A stretch of DNA of 64,000 bases, from assembly GCA_963701295.1 (NCBI GenBank), contig OY969585.1, positions 2,272,001 to 2,336,000 on the forward strand, given 5' to 3'. The notes below the pieces were generated by a model, which worked only from the letters and a program-made list of their open reading frames with translations, searched no databases and was not told where the DNA came from. This stretch comes from Ignavibacteriota bacterium. GTDB lineage: Bacteria; Bacteroidota; Ignavibacteria; UBA10030. The translations under genes were made by a program, and so were the position numbers. Shown one piece after another: positions 9,137 through 44,050 of the stretch (position 1 is the first letter of the stretch; each line of letters begins with the position of its first letter).

Positions 9137-11683
9137 ATGAGATGTGATAATAATAGAATGAGAACTTATTTGGGAAAAATTGCAATTGCTGTATGTTTTT
9201 ACTTTGTGTTTACAATTGTAAATTTTCAGCAGCTCAATGCACAAGGAGTTGTGGGGACGGAACCGCAGGTAGTAAAATGGTTGTCGACAAGTGCATTACG
9301 TTCTTGGTTCTCGAATCTGGGAGCAGAAATTGAATTTGGAAGGCGAGACAGGCAAACATATATTGCTGTAGATCAGATTGATGGGTTATGCTGGCCGAAT
9401 GAATTTAATGTAAGAATGAAGGGTGTAAAGGCAGCAAAAGCATTGTGGATTGGCACAACAAATTTTACTGATCCGGTTTCCAATGCCAATTATCCATATA
9501 AAGTCGTTTGCATTGGAAAAGACGGAATATATCCAGGAACGGAGATTTTTGCAGATGAATTATCTTTAATAGGCAAATTTCCACATCCCAATGTCTATGT
9601 AGATGAGACACGTGCTTCCGCACGCGATTATGATGATATTATTGATGAACAAGATAATACTCAAGCTGCAGACAGAGTAATGATGAATAGATTTCATACA
9701 AGTATTGGAGTGTCTGTAACAAGGAAAGTATTGTCTTTTTCTCAACAGTATAATAATAACTACTATATTTATGAATATACGTTAAAAAACACCGGCATTA
9801 TTGATGAAAGCGGTCAGAAAAAAATAAATAATACTCTCACGGGAGTTGTATTTTATACTCAAACCCGGGTATCCCTCGATGGGGTATCGTATACTGGAAT
9901 AGGGTTAACAGGCGCTGGTGGTTGGGCTCCCTCTGGAACTACATGGGGCAGAAATACAATTACTGATGTAATGAGAAAAGATGGCGATAACCCAGGCGAA
10001 TTCAGAGCTAATATTTCCTATTGGGGACCAATGTCCACGACTCCTTATGGAAGCCCGGCAGGAGATATTGGCCTCCCCGGACCGGCTTCGACAAATGTGA
10101 CGGAATTGGCAGGATATGAGTTTGTAGGAACTGTTGTATTGCATGCAGATAATGCGCCTGGTGATCCGACGGATGATATAACACAACCAAAAACAACGTT
10201 GTATGTAGGGGCCGACAATCCAATTGACCGAAATAACCAACCAACTCAATATAACTCAAATTTGATGGCGCAAAAATATGTATCCTATATGACTGCAGGC
10301 CACGGTGGACAAACTGAGGCGCAGCAGGTAGGAGAAGATGCAAATGGTTGGCCAACTGGACCTGGAAATACTTTTGGAACAGATGCGGGTGGATATATGT
10401 CCGCGCAAGGTTTTGGGCCATATACTCTTAACCCCGGAGATAGCATACGTATTGTGGTAGCAGAAGCTGTCGCAGGTATAAACTGGAATAAAGGATGTGA
10501 AGTTGCAAGAAATTGGTTTGCAAATAATACTTCTGCATTTATCCTTCCTGGCCCTCCTGGCTATAAAGGTGGCACGACAACGGATAAGAATGAGTATAAG
10601 AATGCCTGGGTGTTTTCAGGCAAAGATTCTTTATTCCAGACGTTCAGAAGGGCATTAGCAAATTATAATAGTAACTATGCGATACCGCAGCCGCCCCCGC
10701 CACCGGATAAATTCTTAGTTAATTCGGGTGGGGATCGAATAACAGTTTCTTGGTCTAACAGTGCCGAATCGAGCCCACATTTTGACGGATACAGGCTCTA
10801 CAGGAGTGAGGGCAAAACAGACACAACGTATGACCTCATTCTTGATTGCGGCAAGAGTACGGGTAATCTTGTAAATTCATATGCTGATCAAAATGCGAAA
10901 CGTGGATTTAACTATTATTACTATATTCAATCGAAAGATGATGGATCAACTAACCCCGGCGATGCTGCTCTCAATATAGCTGCAGGTGAACCCTTAGTAA
11001 GCAGCAGATATTATACGATGACGAATAACCCGGGATATCTCACACGTCCTGCTGGAGTTGCTCTAACAACTATATCTAACACTTTTACCTTCAAAGGTAA
11101 TGATACTCTTGTGAATTTTGGATTTCCACCGGGGGTATCTGTCGCAGATTCTACAGGCACCGTAGTGAATGGTATATCCGTCAGTGTCAATGGTGTCAGG
11201 CAAATTCCTGCATTATATACAATATGGGTTAACCCAACAAGACTTCTTAGTCCTGGCGTTTTAAGACCTGATACATTAAGATTTGTTGTACCTCCGCTTG
11301 GGACAATTGAGGTAAAAGTAATATCTCCAACCGGCAATAGGAGCTATAAACTTTCAGAAATAAGAGTTGTTCCAAATCCTTTCAATATAAAAGCGAGGAA
11401 CATTCAATATGGAACGGCTGATCCGACAACTTTGGATCGACTGGGATTTTTTAACTTACCGCCTATCTGTCAAATAAAAATCTATACTGAATTGGGTGAT
11501 TTAATTGCAACAATAAATCATACGAATGGTAGTGGCGACGACTACTGGCAATCACTTACTTCTTCAAGACAAGTCGTTGTGAGCGGATTATATATAGCTT
11601 ATATTGAAGTTACTGAGAATTCTTCTGATGGGAATTATAGAAAAGGTGATAGTATTGTTAAGAAATTTATTATCATTAGATGA
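9137..11683 (+). CDS. Large secreted hypothetical protein with Fn3-like domain and T9SS-like C-terminal sorting domain variant
   Basis: Signal peptide (..QQLNAQ). P-rich linker PQPPPPP, then Fn3-like ITVSW...FDGYRLYRS...YYYYI. C-terminal IRVVPNPF...FFNLPP.CQIKIYT...SGLYIAYIE...KKFIIIR. Confidence 0.65.
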   Translation: MRCDNNRMRTYLGKIAIAVCFYFVFTIVNFQQLNAQGVVGTEPQVVKWLSTSALRSWFSNLGAEIEFGRRDRQTYIAVDQIDGLCWPNEFNVRMKGVKAAKALWIGTTNFTDPVSNANYPYKVVCIGKDGIYPGTEIFADELSLIGKFPHPNVYVDETRASARDYDDIIDEQDNTQAADRVMMNRFHTSIGVSVTRKVLSFSQQYNNNYYIYEYTLKNTGIIDESGQKKINNTLTGVVFYTQTRVSLDGVSYTGIGLTGAGGWAPSGTTWGRNTITDVMRKDGDNPGEFRANISYWGPMSTTPYGSPAGDIGLPGPASTNVTELAGYEFVGTVVLHADNAPGDPTDDITQPKTTLYVGADNPIDRNNQPTQYNSNLMAQKYVSYMTAGHGGQTEAQQVGEDANGWPTGPGNTFGTDAGGYMSAQGFGPYTLNPGDSIRIVVAEAVAGINWNKGCEVARNWFANNTSAFILPGPPGYKGGTTTDKNEYKNAWVFSGKDSLFQTFRRALANYNSNYAIPQPPPPPDKFLVNSGGDRITVSWSNSAESSPHFDGYRLYRSEGKTDTTYDLILDCGKSTGNLVNSYADQNAKRGFNYYYYIQSKDDGSTNPGDAALNIAAGEPLVSSRYYTMTNNPGYLTRPAGVALTTISNTFTFKGNDTLVNFGFPPGVSVADSTGTVVNGISVSVNGVRQIPALYTIWVNPTRLLSPGVLRPDTLRFVVPPLGTIEVKVISPTGNRSYKLSEIRVVPNPFNIKARNIQYGTADPTTLDRLGFFNLPPICQIKIYTELGDLIATINHTNGSGDDYWQSLTSSRQVVVSGLYIAYIEVTENSSDGNYRKGDSIVKKFIIIR

Positions 11684-30011: not shown

Positions 30012-31934
30012 ATGAAAAATAAGAAAAAGAAAATAAAAGGAATTAATGCTGCACCCATGCTGACTCTATCTCCTCGGAAACGGAGAATATTCATGGGTAT
30101 AGCTTTTCTATTCCCATTCATATGTATCCTGTTTCTTGAAATGGGTCTTCGGTTTTTTCACTACGGTGGAAATCTTGATTTATTTATTGAAGGACCGGTC
30201 GGGTATGGAGAATATCTCCAATGTAATCCGAATGTTGCCCGCCGCTATTTCTCTTTGCAGGCGAATATACCGACACCTCCAAAACAATTATTTCTCAAGC
30301 GAAAGCCTTCAAATGGGTACAGAATATTCGTGTTAGGTGAATCCAGTGCTGCAGGTTTTCCTTATGGAAATAACGCTTCTTTTCCTAATGTTTTAGAACG
30401 GGGTCTCTCAAATGCGTTTCCTGAAAAGCGGATTGAAGTAATTAATGTTGCTATGGCTGCTATCAATAGCTATGCACTTTTGGACCTGGTTGACGAAGTC
30501 ATGAAACAATCACCCGATGCATTACTTATTTATACAGGTCATAATGAGTATTATGGTGCATTGGGTGTAGGATCGGTTCAATCTTTGGGCAATTCGCGAT
30601 GGCTTATTACTACGTATCTAAAGTTCCGATCAATAAAAACATTTTTACTCTTACGTGATTTTATTGGATGGACAAAAATTCAGTTTAGCAAAATATTTTA
30701 TAAAGGAAGTGAGATTGATCCTTCTGCAACACTCATGGAAAGAATAGTAGCAGAACAAACCATTCCGTATGGCAGTTCACTGTATGAGTTAGGAAAAAGA
30801 CAATTTGAAGAAAATTTGGATGCTATCATCCAAAAAGCTTCAGAAAATAATGTGCATGTGATACTAAGTGAATTGGTGAGCAATGTAAGAGATCAGGAAC
30901 CATTTATCTCGATAGAGGATAAAGAAGGACAATCGGCAAAATCATTTTATACACTAGCACGTCAGTTAGAAATAAAAGGTGATTATGAAAAAGCCGAACA
31001 AAAATATCTTTTGGCAAAAGACTTCGATGCGTTGCGCTTTCGCGCGCCAGAAGAGTTTAATTTAATTTTAAGGGAATTAGCGAAGAAATATTCCATTCCG
31101 GTTGTACCTACGATATCGTATTTTGAAAAAGAATCTCCGAATAAAATAATCGGAAGTTCTTTGATACTGGAACATGTACATCCAAACATAAAAGGCTATT
31201 TTCTTTTAGCAAAAGCATTTTATGAAACAATTCAAAACAATCGGATGATTAGCAATGAATGGCCATCGAATAGTATTGATCAAGAATGGAATCATGGATT
31301 AACCGAATTAGACAGTGTCTATAGTACGCTGGTAATCCAGCAATTAAAGGGTAGTTGGCCCTTTCAACCGAAATCCCTGCCAAATCGGTTTGTCAAAAAT
31401 TTTCAACCTTCTAATTATATCGAAGAAATTGTCTATCGTGTTATGCAAAGTGCAAATTATAGCTTAGAATCTGGTCATATGGAGTTAGGTGCATATTATG
31501 AAAAACACGGTAACTTGGATAAGGCATTTTTAGAATATAACGCCCTTATTACTTCAATTCCTCATGAAATGGAATTTTATCAGAAAGCAGCAACTGTCCT
31601 TCTGGAAGAAAAAGAGTATGATAGAGCTTCGCAATTGTTGCGCATATCATTAAAATATAAAGAGAACTATTTTGCAAATAAATGGATTGGGCAAGTGGCG
31701 TTGATGAAGAATGATTATAAAGAAGCTATTTCATTTTTATCAAAAGCAGATTTGTTAGATAATCAGGTTGTATTTAATTTAAGCCGCGCTTGCTATTCGA
31801 ATAACCAATGGAATCGTGGAGAAGAGTATTATCAGCGGTTACGAAATATGGCTCCACGATCTGAGTATGTAACCTATCTCGCGAAGTTACGTGTTTTGAT
31901 GCAGCTAAAAGAAAGTACAAAGAAGACAAATTAA
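30012..31934 (+). CDS. Membrane-anchored SGNH/GDSL-family protein with TPRs (paralog of 18805-21036)
   Basis: TM (FLEMGLRFF), RIFVLGESS, YTGHNEYYGALGV, EHVHPN, WPFQP and a TPR-like C-terminus. Confidence 0.75.
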   Translation: MKNKKKKIKGINAAPMLTLSPRKRRIFMGIAFLFPFICILFLEMGLRFFHYGGNLDLFIEGPVGYGEYLQCNPNVARRYFSLQANIPTPPKQLFLKRKPSNGYRIFVLGESSAAGFPYGNNASFPNVLERGLSNAFPEKRIEVINVAMAAINSYALLDLVDEVMKQSPDALLIYTGHNEYYGALGVGSVQSLGNSRWLITTYLKFRSIKTFLLLRDFIGWTKIQFSKIFYKGSEIDPSATLMERIVAEQTIPYGSSLYELGKRQFEENLDAIIQKASENNVHVILSELVSNVRDQEPFISIEDKEGQSAKSFYTLARQLEIKGDYEKAEQKYLLAKDFDALRFRAPEEFNLILRELAKKYSIPVVPTISYFEKESPNKIIGSSLILEHVHPNIKGYFLLAKAFYETIQNNRMISNEWPSNSIDQEWNHGLTELDSVYSTLVIQQLKGSWPFQPKSLPNRFVKNFQPSNYIEEIVYRVMQSANYSLESGHMELGAYYEKHGNLDKAFLEYNALITSIPHEMEFYQKAATVLLEEKEYDRASQLLRISLKYKENYFANKWIGQVALMKNDYKEAISFLSKADLLDNQVVFNLSRACYSNNQWNRGEEYYQRLRNMAPRSEYVTYLAKLRVLMQLKESTKKTN

Positions 31935-36284: not shown

Positions 36285-36527
36285 ATGAAAAGCTTCTTTC
36301 GTGCAATCAAACGAATGTGGTTATTATTTGCACAAATGTTTAGTAAGGTCAATACGATTTTATTACTTTCTCTTGTTTATTTCGTTGTCATTGGGTTTAT
36401 GTCGCTTCTTGTGAAACTTCTCCGAAAAGATCTTTTACGGAAGAAAATGGATTATGATCAAGCATCGTACTGGCAAACCAGAAAAACAAGTGAACAGACT
36501 CTCGACCGCCACAAGTTTCAATTCTAA
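36285..36527 (+). CDS. SxtJ-family small membrane protein
   Basis: W..FA......NT.LLLSLVYF...G.....K...KDLL.....SYW..R.....QF pattern. Directly upstream of a carbamoyltransferase. Confidence 0.72.
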   Translation: MKSFFRAIKRMWLLFAQMFSKVNTILLLSLVYFVVIGFMSLLVKLLRKDLLRKKMDYDQASYWQTRKTSEQTLDRHKFQF

Positions 36528-36538
36528 TCTGGCATACT

Positions 36539-38278
36539 ATGAATATTCTCGGCATATCCTGTTTCTATCATGATTCTGCAGCTGCACTTATTACAAATGG
36601 CCTTCTGGTAGCCGCTGCCCAAGAAGAACGTTTTACAAGAATAAAACACGATCAAGATTTCCCGACAAACGCAATTCACTATTGCATGCAAGAAGGAGGC
36701 ATACAAGCACAGGATCTAGATTATATTGGATTCTATGATAAGCCGCTTTCGAAGTTTGAACGATTACTAACGACGTATGTTGCAACTTTTCCGAAAGGCT
36801 TACCTTCTTTTCTAAAAGCGATGCCGATTTGGTTGAAGGAAAAACTATGGATTCCACAGAAGATTAGAGAGGAACTTGGTGATGCTGCAAAACTTTTGTT
36901 CATAGAACATCATCTCTCTCATGCTGCGAGTGCTTTTTTTGTCTCCCCTTTCACTGAAGCGGCGATTCTCACCGCTGATGGAGTAGGTGAGTGGGAAACG
37001 ACAACCATGGGCATGGGAAATGATAGAACTCTGAACCTAACGAAGAGTATTCATTTTCCTCATTCGCTCGGGCTCTTGTATTCAGCGTTTACATACTATC
37101 TTGGATTTCGAGTCAATAGTGCTGAATACAAAGTCATGGGACTGGCACCGTATGGAAAACCGGTGTTTGCTGACCTTATTTTGCGGGAACTTGTATCCCT
37201 TAAAGATGATGGAAGCTTTCGTTTGAACATGAAATACTTCGCGTATGATTATGGTCTGACCATGACCAACAAATATTTCCATGCCCTTTTCGGTGTTCCG
37301 CCACGAACTCCAGAATCTACATTAACTCAATTCCATAAGGATGTTGCTGCCTCTATTCAGTATGTAACAGATGAAATAATGCTGCGCATAACAACGGATC
37401 TTCACAAAAAAACCGGGAGTGATAATTTATGCCTTGCCGGAGGCGTCGCTCTCAATTGTGTTTCCAACAGTAAAGTACTTGCTTCGTCAGGGTTTAAAAA
37501 AATGTTTATACAGCCTGCAGCAGGAGATGCCGGCGGATCGGTCGGAGCTGCGTTTTATATTTATAATATGTTGTTAAAGAATGAGCGCACATACACGTGG
37601 AGTCATAATTTCCTCGGGCCGGAATATTCTAATAAAACTATTGAGCAAGTATTAAACCAGTTGAACATTGAAGGGGAGCGATTTAGCAACGATACTCTTT
37701 TAAAAAGAACCGCTCAATTGATATCCGATCAACAAGTTGTCGGATGGTTTCAGGGTCGTATGGAATTTGGGCCACGCTCGTTAGGTGCACGCAGTATTTT
37801 AGCTGATCCACGGAATCCGGATAATTATTCACGCGTAAATTTAAAAATAAAGTTTCGAGAGAGTTTCCGTCCGTTTGCGCCGACAGTTGTATTGGAACGA
37901 ATGAAAGACTATTTCGAATTTGATCAACCCAGTCCTTATATGTTGTTTGTTGCACAAGTGAGACTTGATCGGAGAACAATTCCAGCAGTGACGCATGTCG
38001 ATGGTTCTGCACGCCTCCAGACCATTGTTCGTGAAGATCATGCGTTATTCTATGATTTGATCCTCGAATTCGAAAAGCTTACGGGTTGCCCTGTGATCAT
38101 TAATACTTCCTTTAATGTCCGAGGTGAACCTATAGTCTGCGCACCGTTCGATGCAATCAAATGTTTTTTAAGAACGGACATGGATTATCTTATCCTCGGC
38201 AACTTTATATTAGATAAGCGGAAAATCAAAGAATCAGGGTATCAGATGCAAATAAGCGAAAAATTTGCGCTTGATTAA
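36539..38278 (+). CDS. O-carbamoyltransferase (NodU/CmcH/SxtI family)
   Basis: ILGISCFYHDSAAAL, QEERFTRIKH, EHHLSHAASAF, DGVGE, EYKVMGLAPYG, AGGVALN, GRMEFGPRSLG.RS, KFRESFRPFAP, THVDGSAR and NTSFN. Confidence 0.93.
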   Translation: MNILGISCFYHDSAAALITNGLLVAAAQEERFTRIKHDQDFPTNAIHYCMQEGGIQAQDLDYIGFYDKPLSKFERLLTTYVATFPKGLPSFLKAMPIWLKEKLWIPQKIREELGDAAKLLFIEHHLSHAASAFFVSPFTEAAILTADGVGEWETTTMGMGNDRTLNLTKSIHFPHSLGLLYSAFTYYLGFRVNSAEYKVMGLAPYGKPVFADLILRELVSLKDDGSFRLNMKYFAYDYGLTMTNKYFHALFGVPPRTPESTLTQFHKDVAASIQYVTDEIMLRITTDLHKKTGSDNLCLAGGVALNCVSNSKVLASSGFKKMFIQPAAGDAGGSVGAAFYIYNMLLKNERTYTWSHNFLGPEYSNKTIEQVLNQLNIEGERFSNDTLLKRTAQLISDQQVVGWFQGRMEFGPRSLGARSILADPRNPDNYSRVNLKIKFRESFRPFAPTVVLERMKDYFEFDQPSPYMLFVAQVRLDRRTIPAVTHVDGSARLQTIVREDHALFYDLILEFEKLTGCPVIINTSFNVRGEPIVCAPFDAIKCFLRTDMDYLILGNFILDKRKIKESGYQMQISEKFALD

Positions 38279-38287
38279 TATCTATTC

Positions 38288-38485
38288 ATGAAAGGAACGG
38301 GAATGTCAAAATTTCTGAAACGGTTGAAATCTATTGTCACACTCTTGAGAGAGTTTTGGTCGTTTATGCGTATGCAGAAAAAATGGTGGCTTGCTCCCCT
38401 CGTAGTTATCTTGATTCTCATGGGAATACTAATAATTTTAACAGAAGGTTCTGCACTTGCACCCTTTATTTATGCAATTTTTTAA
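38288..38485 (+). CDS. DUF5989 / SxtK-like single-TM microprotein
   Basis: EFWSFM...KKWWLAP-[TM]-EGSALAPFIYAIF*. Directly follows the carbamoyltransferase. Start may be the ATG at 38303. Confidence 0.78.
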   Translation: MKGTGMSKFLKRLKSIVTLLREFWSFMRMQKKWWLAPLVVILILMGILIILTEGSALAPFIYAIF

Positions 38486-41839: not shown

Positions 41840-44050
41840 TCATCGATCGACGATTGACAGACTGTGAATTCCCGATGGTCCCAACACAATAACGTACTTC
41901 TCATTTTGTATGATAGGAAGGTCAACCACAGCACCATCTAGCACCATCACTGCAGGTCGTCTACTCAATGTAAGTGCGCAGCGTGCGGGTGATGTGTACT
42001 TCACTCTCAGGCTATCTCCTTCTTGATGGCACTCCAGAAGTTCATCCGAAATTGAAACTAATTGGATCCTGGTTTCCTGAATGTGAGTTGTGTCATTCAT
42101 TTTTCGGAAACCCAGCGTATGCTTCCCCTGTGGAATCAGAATGCCTTCCCGACCATAACACATCCATGGTTCCCCGTCTAAAAAGAATCGGCCCTTCATT
42201 TGCACAGAGGTGAGTGTCACGGTGTAGGGGGTGTTGATGAGCAATTCCGAACCATCCTTTTGGATGTCAACCTTGGCGGCCATTGCATATGGAAGAATCT
42301 CCCAGTCATGGCTGAACATGGTAGACTCAGAATAGAAGCACACTCGTGAACTCTGATCAGCCGCTGCCTCCCAAAGCTGGAAGATCTCAGAACCGGTTGG
42401 TTGTGAAATCGAGTAGCCTTTCTGTTCAGGTGAATGCACAGGCACAACATTGATGTCAATGATGAACGGATGATCTCCGAGAAACCGATGATAAGTCTTT
42501 CCTAACCTGGAATAACGCTCGGGCGGTTTGGTCCACTCCATGTAAGGGTCTTCAACCTGCAATGACATTGTATACTCTTTTACCAGTTCGAGTATGCTGT
42601 GCAAATCATAACCCAATAGTTGATTGAACTCAGGGTGAAGTGAATTATCTGTGATGGTAAGAATCATTTCCCAGTTGCGTTTTCGTGTCGTATTGAGACT
42701 ATCAAGATCATGCACAATTTGCCTCAATAAACTATTGTTCACCTTAACCCTGTACCGATAAAAAGTATTGAGCGCGGCGGAGTCTTTTTTCCAATAATGA
42801 CAATTGGTTGTATCGAACAATTCAATTTGATCAAAGCCATGAAGTTGCTTAAATTCGGCACGAGCAGTCAGACTGAAGCCTGTAAAGTATTCAGGTCGAG
42901 GAGGTCCTTCAAGAGCCTGCGAACCTACTCCTGTAATTGAAAACTCAGCGATATCAATACCATCCCAGTCGTTCTCAAGCAATAGTCCGAGATCATTCAT
43001 AGCGGCCTGCATGCAAAGCGGGTTCTGAAAGTCCATTAAATAGAGAAAATCCAGATGCGCATCTTGGAGCAGGGCGTTCTTTTGACGCCATTCAGGATGA
43101 ATATCCCAAAACTTCCTTCCGACGTAAGGCCATTCGAGCCAGGCATAGACAAGAATTCCATTCTGATGTGAAACTTTGATCAGACGAGCATAATCGTAAG
43201 GAGTTTTATTATAAAAATACCATACTGCTGCATGGATTGCACGAATGCCCCAATGTCGCCACTGCCGTGCCAGTGTTTCGATCGGAAGATTATATCGATA
43301 ACCTGGGTCAAAATAAGCATCTGCTCCCTGTCGTCGAAAGGCAGGCTTTCGATGCAACACCTTAACAATAAAATAAGGAAAATCTGCAAAGCGCGCATAT
43401 CCTTTCCCTGAAATGGGGTCAAACAGCGGGGCAAAATAAATACAGCGCCCTTTGCCAAAACGTTTGGTAATGACCAACGGATAATCATTGTTGCGATCTG
43501 AAATGAGGATATCCCTCTTCCGCTTAGAAATATTTTCGATCCAGGCAACCCGCGGTGTATCCGCCCAGTGGGGCTTGAGTTCTGGAAGGACATGATCAAC
43601 AAGATCAGCAATAGGCACAGGCTCTCTCAGTTGAAAGCCCATCGCTCGTGAGAGGCCACTCTCTCCATCCGTGATCACGGTGAGGCCGAGTTGCAGGCTC
43701 TTCATAATTGCCTTGACATTATTTGCGGACAACGATCGGGCGGAACTGTGCGGAACAATAAGCAAAGTATTTGGTCCGAGCAGGTGATTCGTTAGATCGC
43801 CAGGATCTCTGCGAATAGTCTTAAAGCCGGAACTCTCCAGGGTGGTAAAGAAACTCTCCTGGTCGATCGCATCTTCATTGAGGGCCTTCGAATTCCACAG
43901 GAGAACATTTTCCGAAACGCCTTCAGGAAATTCTTGTGAATAGGCTGTATGATTGAAATAAATAATCAATAGGTAAAAGAAAACAATCTTCCATATCCAT
44001 ACAGAACAGCGGCGTTGGTATTTTTTCTGAAGAGACTTTTTTTCGGCCAT
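41840..44050 (-). CDS. Exported hypothetical protein, probable glycoside-hydrolase-like TIM-barrel domain
   Basis: 736-aa ORF with signal peptide (..HTAYSQ). GIRAIH...YDYARLIK.SHQNGILVYAWL, HPEWRQ, MDFQNP and WDGIDIAE resemble GHL10/GH-like barrels. Family uncertain. Confidence 0.5.
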   Translation of the reverse strand: MAEKKSLQKKYQRRCSVWIWKIVFFYLLIIYFNHTAYSQEFPEGVSENVLLWNSKALNEDAIDQESFFTTLESSGFKTIRRDPGDLTNHLLGPNTLLIVPHSSARSLSANNVKAIMKSLQLGLTVITDGESGLSRAMGFQLREPVPIADLVDHVLPELKPHWADTPRVAWIENISKRKRDILISDRNNDYPLVITKRFGKGRCIYFAPLFDPISGKGYARFADFPYFIVKVLHRKPAFRRQGADAYFDPGYRYNLPIETLARQWRHWGIRAIHAAVWYFYNKTPYDYARLIKVSHQNGILVYAWLEWPYVGRKFWDIHPEWRQKNALLQDAHLDFLYLMDFQNPLCMQAAMNDLGLLLENDWDGIDIAEFSITGVGSQALEGPPRPEYFTGFSLTARAEFKQLHGFDQIELFDTTNCHYWKKDSAALNTFYRYRVKVNNSLLRQIVHDLDSLNTTRKRNWEMILTITDNSLHPEFNQLLGYDLHSILELVKEYTMSLQVEDPYMEWTKPPERYSRLGKTYHRFLGDHPFIIDINVVPVHSPEQKGYSISQPTGSEIFQLWEAAADQSSRVCFYSESTMFSHDWEILPYAMAAKVDIQKDGSELLINTPYTVTLTSVQMKGRFFLDGEPWMCYGREGILIPQGKHTLGFRKMNDTTHIQETRIQLVSISDELLECHQEGDSLRVKYTSPARCALTLSRRPAVMVLDGAVVDLPIIQNEKYVIVLGPSGIHSLSIVDR

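Follow-up and report, generated by a model that had tools for sequence, protein, structure and literature searches.

What does an O-carbamoyltransferase do in the company of two small membrane proteins, one of which ends in a hexapeptide of the acyl-shuttle type? The locus that raises this question belongs to an Ignavibacteriota bacterium (GCA_963701295.1) whose genome is one contig, 99.3% complete. The window, meaning the whole stretch of 64,000 nt that was analyzed, covers positions 2,272,001-2,336,000 of contig OY969585.1 on the forward strand. The features discussed below are the following, numbered within the window.

36285..36527, + strand: J, a short SxtJ-like membrane protein, 80 aa
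36539..38278, + strand: CT, a two-domain O-carbamoyltransferase (PF02543 + PF16861) of the TobZ/GdmN/NovN fold, 579 aa
38303..38485, + strand: K, a DUF5989 microprotein, 60 aa (65 aa with a start at 38288)
38465..38485, + strand: the hexapeptide F-I-Y-A-I-F at the K C terminus plus the stop codon (Tyr codon at 38471-38473)
30012..31934, + strand: SGNH-TPR paralog 2, 640 aa
18805..21036, + strand: SGNH-TPR paralog 1, 743 aa
5923..36139, + strand: glycan-utilization locus (context), by Pfam content, with a PorV-like label by clustering

The original prediction of a compact trio, comprising an SxtJ-like protein, a carbamoyltransferase, and a single-transmembrane protein, was borne out for all three genes on the + strand. 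The intergenic gaps are 11 nt between J and CT and 9 or 24 nt between CT and K; the K start is more likely the ATG at 38303, giving 60 aa, because a purine-rich AAGGA-type site precedes it and a database gene call (P0009) has the same length. The surroundings are a locus for glycan uptake and breakdown, not an envelope-biosynthesis cluster. They include a TonB-dependent receptor, a PorV-like gene (so labeled from its clustering with PF19572 matches, the window gene itself having no Pfam match), CBM9 and other T9SS-tailed proteins, a sodium/solute symporter, a GH94 phosphorylase, a GWxTD protein, and a GH3 gene. The GWxTD protein was rejected as a fourth component, since 142 of the 151 class genomes encode one. 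Our scan of window genes between 5.9 and 50.4 kb showed neither toxin or PKS genes, in line with the original observation, nor the core saxitoxin biosynthetic genes that surround sxtIJK.

K is a clear member of DUF5989 (PF19451, 82 bits against a gathering cutoff of 27), a family of 5,753 clusters at 50% identity (E up to 0.001). It consists of a basic amphipathic N-terminal part, a KKWW motif, one transmembrane helix (residues 28-47), a Q/E-G-S turn, and a hydrophobic 10-residue tail. The C-terminal hexapeptide reads FIYAIF at 38465-38482, with TAA next, just as originally noted. The expectation of an invariant tyrosine and terminal phenylalanine likewise held, with F55, Y57, and F60 unchanged in 53 aligned K proteins. 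A profile search made without the tail gave F-x-Y-x-x-F-stop in 52 of 53 complete K relatives; among database representatives, 19 of 150 end otherwise. Only 4 of 24,725 six-frame open reading frames of at least 40 aa in the host genome have an FxYxxF ending, and this rarity, together with the invariance of the three residues, places the tail beyond chance occurrence.

The FXYXXF tail motif is defined, and a relay from acyl-tyrosine to an SGNH serine described, in PMC12148441. According to the same paper, DltX is, like K, a single-pass microprotein with a C-terminal FXYXXF and an invariant tyrosine, its partner DltD is a membrane-anchored SGNH protein, and PatA has the hexapeptide FIYANF, counted as 4/6 residues identical with the K tail. 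In PatA and AlgI, however, the motif is fused to an MBOAT, whereas K stands free: among 120 longer matches listed (7,995 candidates scored), none joined K to an MBOAT or SGNH domain, and nine joined CT-K or J-K sequences that we inspected look like frameshift artifacts. The DltX family was not among the 21 Pfam families matched by the 53 K proteins (E up to 1), so that the likeness of K to DltX lies in six residues and topology, and the K tail is the more hydrophobic of the two. Searches for K gave no usable ESM Atlas match outside DUF5989, no match in a phage collection, and no meaningful match among solved structures.

CT matches PF02543 (331 bits) and PF16861 (242 bits) far over the cutoffs and is not NodU itself (equivalog NF041651, 175.9 bits against a cutoff of 1000). 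Foldseek placed its structural model (pLDDT 88) with GdmN and TobZ at TM-scores of 0.81-0.86 and 30-36% identity. Carbamoyl-AMP chemistry is established for the TobZ/GdmN family (PDB titles). CT has no transmembrane segment, and its Pfam domains as well as its overall fold are those of TobZ, GdmN, NovN, VtdB, and WapO. Unlike those stand-alone, soluble enzymes, its clade adds amphipathic helices at about residues 66-103, where NovN has a 9-residue gap, and a conserved C-terminal tail ending in LD. The helix signature and the LD tail are both missing from 19 more distant CTs that occur without K.

In J, a single hydrophobic stretch runs from about residue 12 to residue 46 and is flanked on both sides by basic residues, a charge pattern that would suit a hairpin with both ends in the cytoplasm. 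Its relatives conserve W12, a G/T-P kink in the hydrophobic stretch, an S-Y-W motif, and a terminal Q-F. The description of J as SxtJ-like stands by way of these relatives, 46 of 48 of which, when aligned, match PF19588 at E up to 0.1 (best, 1.5e-14), with two short forms exceeding the cutoff, and by way of the ESM Atlas, where J clusters with SxtJ at 0.93. It does not stand on the score of J itself, which is 14.6 bits against a cutoff of 24.4, the N-terminal half of the model being missing in J.

The genes are also co-inherited. In our survey of 151 genomes of the class, whose statistics take related genomes as they are although kin are not independent, intact K occurs in 36, and the identical 36 carry the close CT clade (E below 1e-160, a cutoff set after the score gap was seen). 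SGNH-TPR proteins occur in 34 of these 36 but in only 2 of the 115 others, and the two K genomes lacking them have another SGNH gene 0 and 1.9 kb from the trio. Three genomes have a decayed K, and neither CT nor SGNH-TPR was detected in them; SGNH-TPR persists without K or CT in two (G099 and G080). The idea that K and SGNH-TPR coincide through a common lifestyle was weakened by a control, since the PorV-like locus marker occurs in 39 genomes without intact K, and only 2 of these have SGNH-TPR. Within this class, then, K is tightly co-inherited with a single CT clade and a single SGNH family. In a second phylum, K-CT linkage is again complete (25/25), but SGNH-TPR is found in only 2 of 41 genomes, of which one lacks K, and fails there to track K, which removes it as a universal partner.

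Gene order adds to this picture. The trio occurs in six orders, and whenever it splits, CT remains with J, in support of the proposed role of J as an adaptor for the transferase. Ten genomes with CT and J but no adjacent K were checked, and all ten have K elsewhere. In three split genomes (G036, G064, and G148), K lies 0-121 bp from SGNH-TPR and the CT+J loci have no SGNH gene; with L224 and L233, K is paired with SGNH-TPR in five split genomes in all. An SGNH gene lies within 1.5 kb in 19/36 loci of the class, 9/25 of the second phylum, and 0/19 K-free CT loci, against 1.3% of random positions in the host genome. The predicted co-occurrence of trio and SGNH therefore stands within the class but is not universal as adjacency, and many lone K genes have no SGNH gene beside them. 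No SGNH gene was detected beside 11 of the 15 K loci of the ten genomes just mentioned, and overall, among loci with 2.5 kb on both sides, adjacency is only 8/43. For myxobacterial-type loci the figures are 0/18 within 1.5 kb and 1/18 within 5 kb. Five genomes of that type have 9-26 PF13472 matches each, the nearest on K's contig being at ~19 kb in two and >300 kb in one, with none on that contig in the other two.

The claim that no MBOAT is present also survived. PF03062 was not found in the host genome by a profile search that was positive in 3 of 14 control genomes, and a hidden MBOAT was thereby set aside. The single AT3 gene of the genome lies far from the trio, about 270 kb from an extra SGNH gene. 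An MBOAT was detected in 15/36 K genomes versus 34/115 others and never on K's contig; a single metagenomic locus (L120) has one adjacent to the trio. With no MBOAT detected in 21 of the 36 K genomes and only unlinked ones in the other 15, the trio appears independent of these enzymes. This sets it apart from the Dlt system, where DltB is an MBOAT and the donor is a carrier-protein thioester; here a soluble enzyme would supply carbamoyl-AMP as the donor.

Two membrane-anchored SGNH proteins had been placed in the same locus, and both exist, with C-terminal TPRs, but neither adjoins the trio. Paralog 2 ends 4.35 kb upstream, past the GWxTD and GH3 genes, and paralog 1 lies 15 kb upstream; in three close relatives a copy of paralog 1 shares the strand of K and lies 16-19 kb upstream of it. 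Scans for promoters and terminators gave about as many sites as chance would (31 versus 30.2 expected) and so lend no support to co-transcription of SGNH-TPR with the trio. Paralog 2 has a basic N terminus, one transmembrane helix, the SGNH domain, and the C-terminal TPRs and is likely a periplasmic enzyme on the acceptor side. Its catalytic residues are S111, N178, E387, and H390, paralog 1 has the same four catalytic blocks, and Ser, Asn, Asp/Glu, and His are retained in 22/22 aligned SGNH-TPR proteins. The glycine of block II is replaced by an invariant alanine (A150), as it is replaced by Ser or Asn in PatB/OatA (PMC12148441). Paralog 2 is 59% identical to an SGNH-TPR protein encoded directly upstream of J-CT-K in L028. 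Co-inheritance makes the SGNH-TPR proteins, with their intact triad and membrane anchor, the predicted partners of K.

The shuttle-type tyrosine tail and the co-inheritance of K with CT and an SGNH protein predicted to face outward make an outward relay of carbamoyl groups likely. We propose, as a reading that we hold to be probable, if only just, that the trio is an MBOAT-free tyrosine-carbamoyl relay across the inner membrane with the SGNH protein as onward transferase. CT would activate carbamoyl phosphate with ATP, and J is predicted to keep CT at the membrane. K would accept the carbamoyl group on its invariant C-terminal tyrosine, forming a carbamate, and for this loading its hydrophobic tail may fold back into the bilayer, to lie between J and the CT amphipathic helices. 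From the tyrosine the group would move to the serine of the membrane-anchored SGNH protein and on to an extracytoplasmic acceptor, and one CT-J-K set per genome could serve several SGNH paralogs. We infer all contacts among the four proteins, the tyrosine carbamate, and the topology. The acceptor is most likely a periplasmic carbohydrate hydroxyl. The envelope glycan originally named would suit other lineages, as well as a single distant SGNH gene of the host; the SGNH-TPR genes that track K here sit in glycan-uptake loci.

The relay requires that a soluble CT reach a K tail placed on the far side by charge rules, and no channel protein is present. Membrane crossing is not required if J and K are a mere membrane scaffold and CT acts directly, at the inner face, on a substrate that is cytoplasmic or linked to a lipid, the tyrosine being structural and the SGNH proteins hydrolases that later edit or remove the group. 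The K-CT linkage, tighter than that of K with SGNH, agrees with this, as do the closest folds of SGNH-TPR, which are esterases and thioesterases; decarbamoylation has been proposed for SxtL (PMC2679770), and in Pseudomonas a putative carbamoyltransferase, WapO, carbamoylates the LPS core (PMC8005017). We nevertheless consider such a scaffold unlikely, if still a serious contender, as it leaves unexplained why K, rather than J or CT, lies beside SGNH-TPR in the five split genomes and why three invariant tail positions and a free C terminus match the shuttle motif.

All of the co-inheritance data would fit equally well if the K tail were a noncovalent docking peptide that brings the SGNH protein to CT-J, with a lipid or small molecule carrying the carbamoyl group across and the SGNH protein still the final transferase. 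The tail, in which 8-9 of the last 10 residues are hydrophobic, resembles a binding peptide. Yet the tyrosine is never phenylalanine in the 53 aligned K proteins or in 251 database proteins with the motif ending (a set partly selected for that motif), and no carrier gene co-occurs, which makes docking improbable. Very improbable is the idea that CT is an ordinary soluble small-molecule tailoring enzyme, as every solved relative is, and that J, K, and SGNH genes merely travel with it on a mobile cassette found in glycan loci. Although trio contexts are very varied, K is kept through six gene orders and in all ten split genomes checked, it decays where CT is deleted, and the 19 more distant CTs lack J, K, and SGNH as well as the clade helix signature.

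A described cassette of similar make-up is that of saxitoxin, in which sxtI-sxtJ-sxtK-sxtL encode a carbamoyltransferase, SxtJ, a 54-aa protein, and a GDSL/SGNH protein, with SxtJ and SxtK given as unknown and acting "in conjunction" with SxtI (PMC2679770, PMC2684587). The sizes fit the long-J form CT-J-K-SGNH of L171, L177, and L194, whereas the window J is the short 80-aa form and the window SGNH proteins bear TPRs. From its size and gene order, SxtK is presumably a DUF5989 member.

If the relay is real, DUF5989 and SxtJ, two widespread families so far without a function, acquire one, and the acyl-tyrosine shuttle comes to include carbamoyl groups as well as a design without a membrane acyltransferase. 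Many environmental phyla would then be expected to have a periplasmic modification not yet described, and the sxtIJKL cassette would call for a rereading. A bolder version, which we regard as doubtful, makes the trio a third class of trans-membrane acylation, without MBOAT or AT3. In it a soluble ATP-dependent enzyme would load a tyrosine carbamate on a reentrant microprotein tail, and one donor would serve SGNH-TPR paralogs in different TonB glycan-uptake loci, the targets being imported oligosaccharides or TPR-held periplasmic proteins and not an envelope polymer made by the cell itself; carried over to saxitoxin, this would make SxtK a carbamoyl shuttle and SxtL a transferase. Literature searches, mostly of open-access text, found no paper in which the FXYXXF motif is connected with a carbamoyltransferase, no publication on DUF5989, and no mention of "carbamoyl" in the acyl shuttle, MBOAT, and SGNH literature.

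Carbamoyl-phosphate synthase genes lie at or beside the trio in L109, L166, L170, and L226 (by Pfam) and in L175, L177, and L194 (by clustering). In Sinorhizobium meliloti 1021, J-K-CT is found with a divergent SGNH gene on pSymB.

The original prediction of a compact, operon-like trio, with a third protein ending in FIYAIF and a stop, was borne out, as three close-set genes lie on the + strand of the window:

36285-36527, + strand: J, short SxtJ-like protein, 80 aa
36539-38278, + strand: CT, 579 aa, with both carbamoyltransferase domains
end 38485, most likely start 38303, + strand: K, DUF5989 microprotein, 60 aa
38465-38485, + strand: C-terminal sequence of K, FIYAIF-TAA

The window's genome (one contig, 99.3% complete) holds one J, one CT, and one K, and no MBOAT was found in it. 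The SxtJ-like label suits J only in part: its own score misses the SxtJ cut-off, but of 48 aligned relatives 46 match SxtJ at E values up to 0.1, and SxtJ is among J's nearest Atlas clusters. CT is 93-94% identical in relatives recorded as Ignavibacteriae or Bacteroidota MAGs. In one close relative (L005:8001-9615), CT is broken into two overlapping frames by a frameshift or an assembly error.

We lean towards a carbamoyl relay from CT to K to an SGNH protein. As its family is known to do, CT would make carbamoyl-AMP; J, judging by its linkage, would hold CT at the membrane; the tyrosine in the K motif would turn into a carbamate; and an SGNH serine would accept the carbamoyl group and hand it to a periplasmic hydroxyl. 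A re-entrant hydrophobic K tail is our proposal for the crossing step. Serine hydrolases take up the carbamoyl group of aryl carbamates, and carbamoyl-serine is slow to hydrolyze; this would favor transfer but could limit turnover. The relay would work like Dlt and PatAB, but the trio system falls outside these because it has no MBOAT. The trio with its SGNH protein also resembles the sxtI-J-K-L cassette; according to three sources (PMC2679770, PMC2684587, and bioRxiv 10.64898/2026.06.11.731795), J and K have no assigned function, and the role suggested for SxtL is removal of carbamoyl groups. Envelope carbamoylation is attributed to WapO, a putative carbamoyltransferase, in PMC8005017. No paper linking a carbamoyltransferase with an FXYXXF shuttle was found in a search of mostly non-subscription papers.

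The two SGNH proteins predicted in the locus both exist, but not next to the trio: these genes, of the family with C-terminal TPRs (SGNH-TPR), sit upstream at distances of 4.35 kb (paralog 2) and 15 kb, within a glycan-utilization locus. In L002, L004, and L005, the slot of paralog 2 is taken by a CBM9 gene, although each of five close relatives checked carries two or three SGNH-TPR copies. A third paralog sits in a different glycan-utilization locus of the window's genome, and a further SGNH gene lies inside a surface-polysaccharide cluster with a flippase, three GT2, Glf, and WecG genes:

G000:C1:2804653-2806890 (L237): third SGNH-TPR paralog, with a GH59 gene on one side and a TonB receptor on the other
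G000:C1:2926268-2927353 (L238:8269-9354), - strand: 361-aa membrane-anchored SGNH protein, 1.9e-32 on the K-associated SGNH profile

Since no MBOAT was found in this genome, the 361-aa protein is a candidate route to surface polysaccharide and possibly a remote client of K. The third paralog's counterpart is intact in a same-genus genome (G099) where K and CT were not detected. Across the class, SGNH-TPR genes are surrounded by TonB receptors, amylases, GH59, GH94, GH3, and T9SS-tailed proteins, and in other lineages the trio often stands amid glycosyltransferases and sugar transferases. Elsewhere in the window are a 736-aa ORF (41840-44050, - strand) with no Pfam or NCBIfam match and an 848-aa protein (9137-11683, + strand) with no Pfam match, which has a TonB receptor on one side and a PorV-like gene on the other; large genes of no assigned family like the latter recur in glycan-utilization loci.

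In the structure model of paralog 2 (pLDDT 91), a membrane helix stands at the N-terminus, and the SGNH fold compares best with esterases; PatB ranks lower among the matches. A scaffold plus an editing hydrolase is an alternative to the relay that we consider unlikely, if still plausible. Ser, Asn, Asp/Glu, and His are conserved in 22/22 aligned SGNH-TPR proteins, in which an invariant Ala replaces the block II Gly; PMC12148441 ties loss of this Gly to transferase behavior, but with Ser or Asn in its place.

In the same source, the acyl shuttle is an FXYXXF motif, carried by DltX or fused to the MBOAT, and acetyl-Tyr is shown to pass its acetyl group to the SGNH serine in PatB. K did not match the DltX family. 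A K profile built without its last 11 columns recovered 54 K genes in 79 CT-anchored loci, and F-x-Y-x-x-F-stop ends 52 of 53 complete proteins, in agreement with the conserved Tyr and terminal Phe that had been predicted; the sole exception (L010) appears frameshifted. The motif also terminates 120/120 near homologs among the matches listed and 131/150 representatives, sets that were partly motif-selected; most of the other 19 representatives have the motif with extra residues behind it. The first Phe is Leu in two K proteins. From its basic N-part, K runs through a single hydrophobic helix of 20 residues and a short turn into a hydrophobic tail, a layout that suggests an N-in topology; J, a long hydrophobic stretch flanked by basic residues on both sides, would form a hairpin. 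That the tail is a docking peptide, with some other carrier for the carbamoyl group, seems to us quite improbable. L135 has two K-like matches separated by about 1 kb, and K matches are repeated and overlapping in L160.

The CT model (pLDDT 88) gives TM-scores of 0.81-0.86 to GdmN, NovN, TobZ, and VtdB. CT has no transmembrane segment, and its strongest amphipathic window begins at residue 67. K-linked CTs conserve residues 66-103 and an LD-ending tail, both missing in 19 more distant class CT loci, in whose surroundings (about 6 kb) no J, K, or SGNH gene was seen; these two regions may bind the membrane or J. Carbamoyl-phosphate synthase genes lie at or beside the trio in several lineages (L109, L166, L170, L175, L177, L194, and L226), and pyrimidine or OTCase genes lie close to it in L007, L016, and L044.

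Co-inheritance was followed throughout in one sample of 151 genomes of the class, with overlaps tallied by hand; kinship among these genomes inflates any test statistic. K matched in 39 genomes and is intact in 36, the others being under the cut-off (G079) or interrupted by stops (G082 and G097). CT matched in 50, and requiring E below 1e-160, a threshold placed at a visible score gap (next best, 2e-136), leaves 36, exactly those with intact K. SGNH-TPR also matched in 36, including 34 of the intact-K genomes, so the predicted co-occurrence of trio and SGNH holds in the class; the other two intact-K genomes have a different SGNH at 0 and 1.9 kb. G099 and G080 have SGNH-TPR without K or CT. The three K relics show neither CT nor SGNH-TPR; in G097 and G079 the genes that flank related loci are now closed up, and G097 retains a CT scar of 24 residues. 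Presence is patchy inside families f1, f3, f13, f15, and f24 and agrees genome by genome except in G099, a pattern likely to reflect several gains or losses independent of one another. We give very little credence to a mere passenger cassette. As controls, GWxTD occurred in 142/151 genomes and a PorV-like marker in 69; intact K was missing from 39 of the 69, and 2 of these 39 had SGNH-TPR. MBOAT, as a further control, occurred in 15/36 K genomes and 34/115 others, never on K's contig. In the second phylum (41 genomes), a close CT accompanied K in 25/25 K genomes, with one further genome having CT without K; SGNH-TPR occurred in just 2/41, so the partner SGNH family differs by lineage.

Adjacency bears out the predicted trio-SGNH association in some lineages but not in others. 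The module has an SGNH domain no more than 1.5 kb away in 19/36 class loci and 9/25 second-phylum loci (24/36 and 11/25 within 5 kb), as detected by profiles that derive from K-associated SGNH proteins, partly of class loci, and so favor detection there; the figure was 0/19 for K-free CT loci, and random positions in the window's genome give 1.3%. An SGNH gene adjoins the trio in 4/5 annotated plasmid loci first examined, but lies within 1.5 kb in only 8/43 of loci L002-L160 (with 2.5 kb either side) and in 0/18 myxobacterial-type exosortase and polysaccharide clusters; five myxobacterial-type genomes have 9-26 non-adjacent SGNH matches each. In G036, G064, and G148, K lies 0-121 bp from SGNH-TPR while CT and J together are on other contigs with no SGNH near; L224 and L233 show the same pairing, and G002 a similar split on short contigs. 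K was located elsewhere in 10/10 checked genomes where CT and J had no neighboring K, and 11/15 K loci of these ten split genomes had no SGNH beside K.

Several arrangements are recorded as side observations. The order (GWxTD)-SAM methyltransferase-SGNH-TPR-J-CT-K recurs in L182, L187, L199, and L013. Only in L120:6623-12553 does J-K-CT-SGNH lead on to an MBOAT plus another SGNH-like gene. In L106:4970-8112, K has an AT3 acyltransferase gene on one side and an SGNH gene on the other, with no CT or J and with glycosyltransferase and asparagine-synthase-type genes nearby. A cob(I)alamin adenosyltransferase gene adjoins a lone K in L087 and L088, and lone-K neighbors of similar size occur in L220, L223, L229, and L232. 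Two loci recall dltA/dltC: L102:4394-7144, where an AMP-binding enzyme gene and a separate acyl-carrier domain gene precede K at a contig end, and L163:4923-10985, on a Methylosinus plasmid, where SGNH-J-K-CT comes after an AMP-binding gene and an ORF of 79 aa.
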